64,000 bases of DNA. Source: Chrysomallon squamiferum. Lineage: Eukaryota; Animalia; Mollusca. The translations under genes were made by a program, and so were the position numbers. The DNA is taken from contig CM022679.1 in assembly GCA_012295275.1 (NCBI GenBank), positions 22,878,001 through 22,942,000 on the forward strand, read 5' to 3'. Shown one piece after another: positions 1 through 19,710 of this stretch (the first letter of the stretch is position 1; every line of letters begins with the position of its first letter). Below the pieces are notes generated by a model. It saw nothing but the letters and a program-made list of their open reading frames with translations, had not been told where the DNA came from and did not search any database.

Positions 1-135
1 AGAGCAAATTGGTGTATAATTATAATTACAAATTGGTATATATTATAATTATACGTTAGTAAGTTCTATAATTACAGGGTGTACATTATAATTAAATGTA
101 ATATAAATACAGATTGATGTGAATTATAATTATAG

Positions 136-195
136 GTTACTGAAAACAGTGTGTGATGATGAAAATCATTGAAATAGTTTACCAAATTAATACAG
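136..195 (+). pseudogene. Extra 60-nt N-terminal repeat exon of copy A1 with an in-frame TGA
   Basis: tatag|GT TAC TGA AAA CAG TGT..AAT ACA G|gttagt. Paralogous to exons 355-414, 10983-11042 and 11178-11237, with TGA where they have TGT (Cys). Confidence 0.6.
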
Positions 196-354
196 GTTAG
201 TATTGTAATTGTAGAGTAGTGTGTATTTTAATTAAAGGTTGGCGTTGTATTATAATTATTCATTTGTGAGTTTTATAATTACAGGCTGGTATATATTATA
301 ATTACAGGCTGGTTTGTATTATAATTGCAGACTGATGTGAAATTATAATTACAG

Positions 355-14763: not shown

Positions 14764-14943
14764 GTTTTGAACAGGAAAAACACATTATACACGACAAAAA
14801 GAGGAGGGAATTCTACAGAAAACTGGCTGAGAAAATTCATGGAAAGCTTGGTGCTAAAAATCGAAAACCACTTCCAGCATGCTGCATCTGGAAAATTTCC
14901 TGATCCCTTTGGAAAATACCAAGTTTTCAGAAAAGCAAAATAG
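14764..14943 (+). pseudogene. Orphan, internally deleted duplicate of the A2 last exon, followed by duplicated 3'UTR
   Basis: Near-identical to 13760-14005 but with a 5' deletion and an 11-nt deletion (tggaaaatttcctga) that gives a premature TGA. Confidence 0.85.
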
Positions 14944-17448
14944 TTATCAGCTGAACTTGTGGCTGTTTTATCATTTATTACATTTGTTTGTTTTGTTATT
15001 TGTTTTGTGTTGTTTGCTTTATTTATAAGTTGATACACAATCTTTGTGTTAAAAGACTGCACAATTATTTATTTTGTTTTTATTTTGATAATTATGCTGC
15101 TTTATTTATAAAAGATGATTCTGATCTTAAACAGAAATATAATCTAACTGTTGTTAGGCTTTAACGTATACATTACTTAAAACTATGAAAGAGTAAAAAT
15201 ATTTACATTTTTCAAAAGAAGAATGAAAAGAGAAAATTCTGCTGTTACAAACAGTTATTTTTTTTTTAACTTTCTTAAATAATACAATTTAATCCAATGA
15301 ACTTGAAACAGCCAAAAAATGACCTTTGCCTTGACCTTCTTGCATAATTTTGACCTACAATCGACCTTAAACATATTCCAGGCATATTTAGTTAGAAACC
15401 CTAACATCATTGAAATTGGTCAAGTACTTCTAGAGATATGCCATTTTCTGAGAGAAACAATATATATATATTAAAAATTGTGCAAATTATGTTTGTTTCT
15501 TATATGAATGTCAGTATTCGACCTTCTCCCATAAGCATTATCAACTCCTTGAATGTACATTTCAGTTTTAGTTTTGTTATCAACTATATATTTGTAATAT
15601 ATTCTTCTCTGTATTGTAATCCTACAGTTTATGAGAATAAAGTCATTGTCATTGAATAGTCCCATCCAGCACTTTGGACGTTAATCTTTAGTCTTTGTCC
15701 TGCTCTCTGTTCAATAAACCCGATTAATGGTATCACTTTATACCATGATAAAGACAGCTTAGGCTTTACTGTAATAAAAATAAATTAACAGTCACAACCA
15801 AAGTAAGATAGCTTTAAAATGATTCACGAATTAAATAGATAATAATAATAATAATAATAATAATAATAATAATAATAATAATAATAATAATAATAATAAT
15901 AATGTTCTGTATGCCCTGCTTTATAGTCACCAGTACTGATTAATGATAAAACTAAATACTGATAACCACTTCAATATGTGAATGTAAGATACAGACCTAT
16001 GTTAAACCCCAGTTGGAAATTCACTTTTAATGCGATCTGAAATTACCCGATCAAAAAAAAAAAAAAAAAAAAAATAAAATAAAATAAATAAATAGAAAAG
16101 GAAAAAAAAAAAAAAAAAAGGAAATGATTAAACATTTCGTTTAAAAGTTATATAAGAACTACTTTATTAATATAATACTTTAATGAACAAGCAAACAAAT
16201 AAACAACAACAACAGATAATAATAATAATAATAATAATAATAATAATAATAATAATAATAATAACAGCAACGTGTTGTGTATGTAAGAGTCAGACTACGC
16301 CATTTTGCCTGCGAGTTTATTTTTAGAAACAAAAATTCCAGTTTCAGTATTATTTTCGTGATAATAAACCACAAGAATTCAGTCCTTGAAAGGCGGAAGG
16401 AGACAATATGGTTTACATGGCGATATTTTAAAACAAATAATATAAATTTCAGAGCTTCTCCTTTTCAAATAATTACTGAAATTATTTTAATTAGAAAAAT
16501 TAAAATAATTTCAGTAATTAAAAGAACAACTCCAGTGAAACCAGAGAGGATTGGTTAGTTTAATGTTATTACTGTGGGATTAACGGAAGTAATACATTTA
16601 TATTATTCAGGTCTATATGTGAGTATGAGAATTATCGTTATGACAAGGTTATAAAGTGATTTCACAAAATCAAATCAAATCAAATCACTTGTTTGGCGGG
16701 AATGTCATTAAATATTAAGAAATCAGATTTTCGTTTATGATAATTTTATTATACTCGCAAATATATTATCCACATCAAAATTTAGAAAAAAAAAAAAAAT
16801 AAAAAGTTTTCTTACACTTACAGCTATGTACTCTAAATGAAAATTACGAATATCAAAGGGTTTGAAAGAGTGCAGTTGTGATGTCCGTCTGCTTTGGGAT
16901 TTTATTGAAGTGTAAGTTACTAAAAAAATAAATCTGAATAATTCTTAAAATATGAATAGTTAATTTAAGGGGAAAAAATAAAATCAGAATAAAGTCACTT
17001 TTTATAAAATAATAATAATAATAATAATAATAATAATAATAATAATAATAATAAATAAAATAAAATAACAAGAATAAGAAAAGGAGCATAATAATAATCC
17101 AGTTGAATAATTCAGTAATAATTTGTTAAATAAAATAAAATAACAAGAATAATGTTTAAAGAAGCATAATAAATGATCCAGTTAAAAGACAATTCATTTT
17201 TTGTTAGAAAAAATGGTCAGTTCTTTCAAAGAATTTGTAATTTTGTGTTTTTTTATTTTTATGCAGAAGGTTAATAACATGTTAGCAACAAAAAATGTTT
17301 TGATACAATCTAATTTTCAAAATTAGAAAAAATGGGATTCTCATGTTTTTCTGAAGATTAAAATTATTACTGAATATTTTTAAGTTCTGCCAAAGTATAA
17401 TATTTTAATACATTTCTGTCTTTTTTATTTTTCAGGGAAAGCAGTAAT

Positions 17449-19710
17449 ATGGCCTGTAAGTATCATATTATCAGCAACAAACAAGCAGTCTCAAACTATC
17501 AGAGAGAGAGAGAGAGAGAGAGAGAGAGAGAGAAGAGAGAGAGAGAGAGAGAGAGAGAGAGAGAGAGAGAGAGAGAGAGAGAGAGAGGTATACTTAAAGA
17601 TAGTATGTTTTATAATTGAAGATTAATGTTCATTGCAATTACTGAATATTTTGTATTATAATTTCAGGTTATTGTGTCTATTGCCTGCTGGAGAAATTGT
17701 CAGAATTCTTTATCCCAATAATTGTCAAGGAGCAGGAAAATGGTATAGTTTGCTCAATAATAATCAAAAATAAGTTAAAAAATAACTACAGTGTGTTAAT
17801 ATATTTGAATGAGGCAGTTTTTTAAGAGAGGGGAGAACAACAAGAACAACTGCAGTAATGGTAACATTAATAATGATTACGATAAATAATAGTAACATGA
17901 AAATAATAATAATAATATAAATGAAATAAAAATTACAACATAGGTAATAAATAACTAAATAAGTATTAGAGAAAAAGTACAGAATGCTTACACTATGTGT
18001 TATATATATATATATATATATATATATATATTTATTTTTTTTTTTTTTTCTTTAGTTGAAACCAAAGGAAACATTTTATCAGGTGCTGGGGCATCTGCAG
18101 GAAATCAAAATGTCATTATTGAACACTCCAAAAATTTCTCAGTTGTTTTGTCAGCCCAATCAGAAGGTAAACATTTATTTTAATTTAAACAATCTATTTA
18201 TTTATTATTTTTATCTGTTGATAGTTTTTGTTATTATTATTATTATTATTGTATTATTCTTATTTTATAGTCCACTTTGTGTAATTTTTGTTAACTGAAA
18301 AAGTGAATTATTAGTTCTTCTAATATACCAGTACAAATAAAATTACATAATTATTGTTTATTGTGAATGTCAGTGTTTCAGTAAAGTTTAAGAAGCTAAA
18401 ATGACATTATCTATTTATTTGATGTTTAAATTATTATTATTATTATTATTTGTGAAAAAAAAGGAGGATCATGTCCCTTTTTCCAAATAGTTTTAATATC
18501 ACAAAATAATAAAAAAAAATCTGCTTAAAGGTTTCTAAACAAAACAAAATTATTACTGCATTATTTATTTATTCATTTATTTATTTATTTATTTATTTAT
18601 TTTTGTTTCATTAGTCCAGTACAGTGCCCAAGTATTGTTACAATAACTGTGAATTATAAATGATATAGAAAAAGGGAAATGATCCATGCTCTCCCCTGTA
18701 ATAATAATAATAAATGATGATGCTGATAAATAAATTTAAAAAAAAGCACTGTTATTAAACATTGTAGATGATAAAGAAGATGGAGAGATGTCAGAAATAA
18801 GAACAGTTGACAGTCAGCCAGCATGGTGTATGTGTGGCCATTGTCGCTGGTTGCCTACACCTGTAGAAAACGTTTGCTGTGGACGAAAACCTGCAGAGTG
18901 CAGGTCCATCCAGGTAAAACTATCTGCGTGTGAAATGATCTGTAACAGAATTACAAGTGTATCATTCCAGGTTTTCATTGGCCAATTTGTTGGTAATATC
19001 CCCAAATGAGCGACACTGAGGTTAATTATTAACAAAACAAAACTTTGGAGACATGTTGGATTCCATCCTTGATCATTTTCGTTTGTTGAGGTATTTATCA
19101 TTCCAGCCTATCTTGAATATCTAGTTTACTTTTTCCACTCTGTTAATAGTACTGCTGTTAAGCAAACACCAAACAAGTTTTTTATATGTTATGTCAAACT
19201 ATGGAAAAATAAATAAAATGGGTAGAGTTATTTTCCTCACTTCTAAAATCAAAATTCTTCCTCATTAATGGTGCTTTTCAGTAATAATAATATTCTTTTG
19301 TTTCACTTGCAAATCTAGTTTGTTTTACTCCTAATACATAAAATATTGGTATTGTCTGCATTGGTGACTGGTTGTTTGAACATTTAAATCTAAAATGTAC
19401 ACTAATTATTTTGTTATGGTTGAATCCTGTCCATGTTAATATATTCATCTGGTTTTGTTTTCAGGATTTGAATGATATTATTATTTATGTTCTAAGAAAT
19501 CCGATGTATCCTCCAGCACAGACCAAAACAGAAGAACATTTTATAAATGACAACAACAGGAGGGAATGCTACAGAAAACTGGCTGAGAAAATTCACGGGA
19601 AACTTGGTCCAAAAATTCGAAAACCAGTTCCAGCATGCTGTGTTTGGAGGGTTAGGGACCAATTTCCTGATCCCTTTGGAAAATACACTGGTTTCAAAGA
19701 AGCAAATTAA
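17449..19710 (+). CDS. Stand-alone P2X7 ballast-domain protein, copy B2 (194 aa, complete)
   Basis: Exons 17449-17455, 17668-17742, 18056-18166, 18768-18913, 19465-19710 total 585 nt, all GT-AG: MACYCVYCLLEKLSEFFIPIIVKEQENVETKGNILSGAGASAGNQNVIIEHSKNFSVVLSAQSEDDKEDGEMSEIRTVDSQPAWCMCGHCRWLPTPVENVCCGRKPAECRSIQDLNDIIIYVLRNPMYPPAQTKTEEHFINDNNRRECYRKLAEKIHGKLGPKIRKPVPACCVWRVRDQFPDPFGKYTGFKEAN*. Confidence 0.9.
17501..17587. repeat. (GA)n microsatellite in a B2 intron
   Basis: Read directly from the sequence. Confidence 0.95.

Follow-up and report, generated by a model that had tools for sequence, protein, structure and literature searches.

A tandem array of predicted P2X7-ballast genes lacking the channel in the mollusc Chrysomallon squamiferum

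We analysed a 64,000-nucleotide (nt) stretch of Chrysomallon squamiferum DNA (GenBank assembly GCA_012295275.1, contig CM022679.1, positions 22,878,001 to 22,942,000 of the forward strand), here called the window, which opens with a tandem array of genes for the ballast, the cytoplasmic domain of the P2X7 receptor. Six-frame motif search, self-BLAST, and exon mapping located five ballast loci (Pfam PF20478), all on the plus strand, at window positions 1-19710; the window is intron-rich and 22-33% GC. The loci comprise four exons with cysteine motifs (Cys exons; 2448-2596, 6844-6965, 12998-13149, and 18768-18913) and five last exons (3135-3383, 7539-7777, 13760-14005, 14764-14943, and 19465-19710), and tblastn with 176 ballast relatives gave matches confined to these Cys-exon and last-exon sites. 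Eighteen short exons were mapped, and all 13 introns of the c1, c3, and c4 models are GT-AG and keep the frame. A preliminary description of this DNA, made from the sequence alone, had counted four gene copies plus an orphan exon encoding proteins of ~195-215 amino acids (aa). The five loci stand, but only three copies have open GT-AG models, of at least 218 aa (c1), 216 aa (c3), and 194 aa (c4); c2 has no complete model and is a likely pseudogene, and the fifth locus is a fragment. We favour, with moderate confidence, the reading that these are tandem, predicted spliced host genes of the nanor-like/ZCD-only kind, likely descended from the KolX protein of Kolobok transposons, with three open and two broken copies.

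The c1 model is intact, with its start codon outside the window, whose edge cuts the gene. Mapping placed in it a degenerate 60-nt N-terminal-type exon with an in-frame stop (136-195), an N-terminal Cys/amphipathic exon of phase 1-1 (355-414), a 46-bp intronic minisatellite of 15.6 copies similar to the splice flanks of the repeated exon (634-1350), a diverged 75-nt N-terminal-type exon (1379-1453), an acidic, Ala/Gly/Ser linker exon (1864-1989), the Cys exon, with CxCxxC, CC, and C equivalent to C477-C506 of P2X7, and the last exon, which encodes the basic helix, PACC, W(K/R)IR...GF, and the stop. Copy c2 has the last two exons alone: its Cys exon is shortened at the 5' end, no ATG or N-terminal exon was found in 3384-6843, and its last exon carries a +7/-14 nt frameshift, the +7 sitting in an A run where an assembly error may be responsible. 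Copies c3 and c4 each begin at an ATG exon of their own, with a strong donor and 7 nt of coding sequence (10761-10767 and 17449-17455, with the c4 acceptor at 17436). In c3 this exon is followed by two N-terminal Cys/amphipathic exons that are tandem duplicates (10983-11042 and 11178-11237), a degenerate 23/46-bp intronic minisatellite (11242-11831), a third N-terminal-type exon that has AT where the GT donor is expected and is probably skipped (11835-11909), and the linker exon (12276-12401). The orphan at 14764-14943 duplicates the c3 last exon in broken form, having lost the 5' part and 11 nt after the CC. In c4, a single N-terminal Cys/amphipathic exon (17668-17742) and the linker exon (18056-18166) precede the Cys and last exons. 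Exon-like stretches at 1518, 6312, 11992, and 17827 were rejected, as they break the frame or contain a stop.

Two further features of these copies were recorded. The Cys-exon frame stays open into the last intron for 31-38 codons in c1, c3, and c4 (2597-2707, 13150-13266, and 18914-19009, plus strand) and for only 7 codons in c2; this may be accidental, or intron retention may yield a short alternative C-terminus. Just upstream of the orphan exon, at 14741-14744, the DNA runs X2 and X4 have 93 other letters, which implies either polymorphism at this locus or a difference in assembly.

Both exon types score above the PF20478 (P2RX7_C) cut-off of 23.5 bits (23.7-41.2 bits), and the motifs CxCxxC, CC, C, CC, W(K/R)(I/V)RDQF(P/A)DPFGKYxGF, and R(R/K)(E/K)CYR were all found, the last in place of RHCAYR. 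All seven zinc-cluster cysteines align with P2X7 (rat C477, C479, C482, C498, C499, C506, and C572/C573), the positions that we take to be its zinc ligands, and their conservation suggests that each product would bind two zinc ions. Cluster 1 (PxWCxCx2C) is matched by c3 and c4, with R for P in the broken c2 and F for W in c1. Cluster 2 has CC-x6-C in all four Cys exons, aligning with C498, C499, and C506, and the P2X7 flanks (L, ITTS) are not preserved. Cluster 3 reads (L/V)PACCVW(K/R)(I/V)RDQFP...Y(Q/T)G against the published (L/I/V)PSC(C/S)x3IRx2(F/Y)Px5Y(S/T)G, with S replaced by A, as in 11% of relatives. Searches of PDB sequences returned P2X7 as the sole match (family profile E 1e-31). 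Structure models were available for the c3 last exon and for P0038, a full-domain database relative. The c3 model (pLDDT 88.9) matches P2X7 residues 512-595, with 14 P2X7 chains at the top of the Foldseek ranking (probability 0.94-1.0, TM-score 0.52-0.65), and the P0038 model matches P2X7 at E 3e-5. The profile scores, PDB sequence matches, and Foldseek and VIA rankings thus agree on the ballast homology that the preliminary description had proposed, and its reading of the zinc cysteines and of the altered arginine motif holds as well.

Between their own ATG and the stop, the c3 and c4 models contain neither a P2X ectodomain nor the two transmembrane helices, as had been described; the highest 19-residue hydropathy is 0.63-1.47, indicating no clear transmembrane helix. 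Alternatively, a P2X channel gene or some other gene located upstream of the window, which begins within the array, could use these exons as alternative 3' ends; c2, which has no 5' exons, could in this way end c1 alternatively. The separate ATG exons of c3 and c4 speak against this, as does the lack of a P2X family match among the open reading frames (ORFs) scanned in 1-41000 (exons shorter than 48 codons lay outside the scan), and we regard it as very improbable.

HMMER searches of 1.84 billion representatives gave 500 matches at E ≤0.001, compared with none from a word-index search of the last exon against longer proteins. Among 156 retrieved relatives, 151 are 320 aa or shorter and 53 have the full cysteine set; the closest are merely 28-43% identical, and those named come from bivalves, a gastropod, a starfish, and a fish. 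The ballast-only protein is the common form of the domain and a kind already published: channel-less ZCD-only proteins occur from sponges to fish, oyster and limpet included, at fewer than 10 per species (Rump et al. 2020, PMC7016195), the KolX protein of Kolobok transposons is a ballast domain, and nanor and the P2X7 tail are proposed to be domesticated KolX (Kojima and Bao 2022, PMC9587614). The link to nanor and KolX made in the preliminary description is therefore borne out by published work (PMC7016195, PMC9587614).

Like the nanor-like/ZCD-only proteins (PTHR36981, PF20478), the array products are short, with a C-terminal ballast and no transmembrane or other domain, and keep the zinc cysteines and, of the GDP site, just R546 and R578. 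What sets them apart is the tandem arrangement, in which gains and losses of copies can be seen, the N-terminal Cys/amphipathic exon and its repetition, the substitutions W556 to K and A549 to C, and a helix that is more basic. With KolX of the Kol0-lineage Kolobok they share the domain (P2X7 476-595) and seven cysteines, and their HGxLG...R..(L/I)P.C is closer to the transposon-borne Data S6 sequence than to P2X7 (PMC9587614). With the P2X7 ballast (PDB 6U9V, 8TR5) they share, besides the cysteines, R546, Y550, P570, R578, F581-P582, and, in the model, the helix arrangement; they lack the ectodomain, transmembrane helices, C-cys anchor, and residues 395-460, and do not keep H547, R574, K583, or W556. 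A phase-0 intron divides the ballast domain in the array genes, whereas P2X7 encodes it in a single exon (PMC7016195). The best database relatives are short proteins named "P2X purinoceptor 7-like" (Mya, Ostrea, Dreissena, Gigantopelta, Asterias, and a fish), of the same subtype CxCxxC...MPT...E..CC, PxCCVW.IRD..PDP.G.Y.GF; no orthologue was found, and the array occupies its own long branch. In a quick version of the tree, built with 53 relatives, c1, c3, and c4 fall together as a single clade (support 99) at the end of a long stem.

Some longer ballast-containing proteins were present in the relative library (P0077, P0107, P0089, and P0080; 390-3261 aa), P0077 starting with kinase-like sequence, a possible further fusion. 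A metagenome locus (L001) was rejected because it matched by chance, antisense to a bacterial ORF of 68% GC, and the ESM Atlas gave no usable match, a result that carries no weight.

The units stand head to tail and have a 2-3 kb intergenic flank in common. At 26 of 37 informative sites c1 and c3 are grouped against c2 and c4, which suggests that an A-B pair was duplicated; the array would have grown, likely by unequal crossing-over of this pair (c1-c2, then c3-c4), and would now be losing copies. In the DNA contigs of runs X2 and X4, the summed last-exon depth is 5-11 times that of locus-specific contigs; further copies therefore probably lie outside the window, the depth being a hint and not a copy number. 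The c3 exon at 11835-11909 is present in X2 and X4 contigs, and the orphan exon is partly covered by an X2 contig.

The preliminary description had suggested a search of the flanks for a Kolobok transposase or terminal repeats. Under the published end rules (TTAA and RR...YY termini; PMC9587614), no TTAA-RR...YY-TTAA pair matching at 12/14 or more was found among 170 left and 150 right candidates, although old, decayed ends could escape. On the transposase the answer is less complete: 150 of 168 candidate ORFs (at least 48 aa, 1-41000) gave no transposase family match, and short or decayed exons could escape; nine further ORFs were scanned separately and nine antisense frames over ballast exons were left out. 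Rfam gave no match in 1-41000, and the inverted-repeat list was discarded as all AAT/ATT microsatellite. Mobile or non-autonomous Kolobok elements, inserted in tandem, could carry the copies as KolX cargo, since KolX is a ballast protein, Kolobok is present in molluscs (PMC9587614), and the contig depth makes more copies likely. Unlike KolX, however, the array shows no transposase, terminal repeats, or TTAA duplication in these searches, and its copies share flanks as expected of segmental duplication, which makes the cargo explanation improbable. The host-encoded tandem birth-and-death proposed at first agrees with the c1+c3/c2+c4 split, the two dead loci, and the missing Kolobok ends.

A frameshifted coding-like remnant (P...GW...LELxxCGW...C) flanks c1, c2, and c3 on their 3' side (4060-4460, 8340-8660, and 14430-14720, plus strand) and was co-duplicated with the units. 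It had no match in Pfam and no paper on it was found; presumably it resembles the Cys-rich end of a DNA-transposon protein.

The N-terminal exon is of symmetric phase 1 and encodes C-x-C-x-x-C followed by an amphipathic helix. It stands amid 23/46-bp minisatellites; c4 has one such exon, c3 has two and a further dead one, and c1 has three or more. No match to it was found among the 156 relatives or in Pfam, and a literature search that did not cover subscription journals or Repbase reports found no paper on this module or on tandem ballast-only arrays. The hydrophobic moment exceeded 99.5% of shuffles in two of six N-terminal-type exons and was borderline in one. A role as a lipid anchor is possible.

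P2X7 contacts GDP through R546, H547, R574, R578, and K583 (Rump et al. 2020, PMC7016195). Of these five residues the array keeps R546 and R578; H547, R574, and K583 are replaced by R/K, V, and D, position 547 thus remaining basic. V574 and D583 are usual in ballast-only relatives (110/140 and 99/140), and retention of R546 and R578 alone is the pattern of protostome ballast-only proteins (PMC7016195). In P2X7 the cavity is formed with the help of helix alpha-9 of the neighbouring subunit (PMC9859053), and the part bearing this helix has no counterpart in the array proteins. Isolated human ballast is soluble and trimeric, binds GDP at 2.6 µM, and also binds calmodulin (Sander 2022, PMC9574498). 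The construct used there spans residues 395-595 and includes the alpha-9 region (PMC9574498), whereas in the profile alignment the family homology covers only P2X7 ~460-593. The preliminary description had suggested that the array proteins might sense nucleotides (GDP/GTP) and zinc in soluble form, with a part in immunity or stress. Defence genes typically show rapid birth-and-death, and the behaviour of the human ballast, the two retained arginines, and the basic residue at 547 would also fit a sensor. With R546 and R578 as the sole retained contacts and no counterpart of the alpha-9 part of the pocket, the nucleotide-sensor interpretation is weak; P2X7-like high-affinity GDP binding appears doubtful, and so does solubility, given the Cys-rich amphipathic N-terminus, which had been overlooked. 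We consider such a sensor unlikely. The basic helix itself has a net charge of +9, +10, and +6, compared with a median of +5 and a maximum of +7 in 53 relatives, and A549 is replaced by C (3/125 relatives) and Y/F553 by L (7/125).

Two RNA runs (X8 and X9) contain short contigs on the last exon at a depth of 2.5-4.6. One of them (X8 record 16, depth 2.5) has the c4 letter at 10/10 listed sites and at all 16 c4-c3 differences; X8 record 17 and X9 record 25 have it at 8/10 sites and would come from an allele or another paralogue. No RNA contigs were seen on the 5' or Cys exons of c3, although contigs cannot show absence; they were matched at 85% from c3, and the c4 Cys exon is too diverged from that of c3 to be reached. 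These data suggest that the array is transcribed, and splicing is predicted from the gene models. A short, very high-copy genomic repeat at 15585-15654 also occurs in RNA contigs, within longer transcripts.

Comparison of c1, c3, and c4 revealed no nonsense changes against 5.3 expected, no frameshifts where intron indels predict 6.3 (P 0.002), and no change at any of nine shared cysteines against 4.1 changes expected (P 0.016). A ratio of 0.41 was obtained for the C-terminal 55 codons (P 0.012); pooled dN/dS was 0.45-0.53, and its bootstrap intervals fell between 0.27 and 0.92. Together with the near-neutral segments described below, these values are fairly read as a protected scaffold whose surfaces change fast. 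Gene conversion in the array is likely, because few non-coding parts are as little diverged as the last intron (flanks 0.14-0.31) and the linker exons of c1 and c3 are just 2 nt apart.

Several results weigh against functional, KolX-derived host genes. Nonsynonymous divergence (0.13-0.18, from three mutually dependent pairwise comparisons) equals or exceeds last-intron divergence (0.11-0.155), and the ratio found to be 0.41 in the C-terminal codons is 1.01 in the Cys-exon core, where nonsynonymous counts are slightly inflated by an off-by-one alignment of the first codons of the c4 exon, and 0.97 in the first 26 codons of the last exon, near-neutral apart from the cysteines. W556, present in 99 of 125 relatives, is Lys here as in only one of them, a change that could destabilise the fold. 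The fold match of the c3 exon is weak by itself (Foldseek E ~0.12), VIA placing P2X7 first at Z 5.7 with the next chain at 5.1. The amphipathic signal is not significant in three of six exons, including the only one of c4 (0.25). RNA contigs lie on the last exon only, none joins two exons, both runs belong to a single study, and one intronic contig indicates DNA or unspliced RNA in the library. Descent from KolX is drawn from the published paper rather than from comparison with Repbase sequences. The array might be recently relaxed and mostly decaying, with little present function: two of five loci are broken, some exons are dead (the stop in 136-195 and the donor lost at 11909), nonsynonymous and intron divergence are similar, RNA support is marginal, and residues conserved in the family (A549, Y/F553, and W556) are lost. 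Three copies with zero stops, frameshifts, and cysteine changes would be unexpected under neutrality, however, and we judge general decay unlikely.

The intact genes would each encode a cytoplasmic protein of ~200 aa in three parts. The repeated N-terminal C-x-C-x-x-C with its amphipathic helix would be joined by a flexible, acidic linker to the ballast core, which would hold two zinc ions and include a strongly basic helix. Palmitoylated cysteines serve as membrane anchors. The mechanism that we consider most likely, and propose tentatively, is a zinc-stabilised adaptor held at the inner membrane face by S-acylated N-terminal cysteines and the amphipathic helix, whose basic face would bind polyanionic partners. 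Alternatively, a domesticated KolX could act in the nucleus, binding DNA, RNA, or transposase through its basic face, for example to damp Kolobok or in a nanor-like embryonic role. KolX accompanies a transposase, nanor, for which a role in transcription has been proposed, is expressed at the midblastula transition (PMC7016195, PMC9587614), and the core net charge reaches +14 (c1) and +16 (c3), where none of 53 relatives exceeds +13. The c4 core has just +7, however, and the N-terminal Cys/hydrophobic module would fit membranes better, so that a nuclear factor seems less probable, though worth keeping in view.

Downstream of the array, an MRP1/ABCC1-like ABC transporter gene (41040-63200, plus strand) extends past the window end; among 14 proteins tested, the best was Mytilus ABCC1, at 68% over up to seven exons. 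It contains three tandem paralogous TMD2 exons (58660-58970, 60741-61048, and 62754-63064, plus strand; 311, 308, and 311 nt, phase 1 to 0), which are likely mutually exclusive because including two shifts the frame; independent exon arrays in metazoan MRP genes have been published (PMC6071210). An AT-rich 40/73/148-bp tandem repeat in an intron of this gene (49969-50457) is a source of spurious long ORFs.

Ballast-only proteins as such are already known, and the array adds one more likely domestication of KolX. Its small natural paralogues, which differ at the GDP helix, would lend themselves to tests of zinc, GDP, and calmodulin binding. A more speculative view, to which we give rather little weight, is that a domesticated transposon protein independently rebuilt the intracellular design of P2X7, a palmitoylated Cys anchor joined to a zinc ballast, free of the channel. 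The anchor would be a new, repeatable exon flanked by minisatellites, in paralogues that diversify while their last intron is homogenised. If true, the array would offer a natural channel-free system in which to learn what a membrane-tethered ballast signals to.

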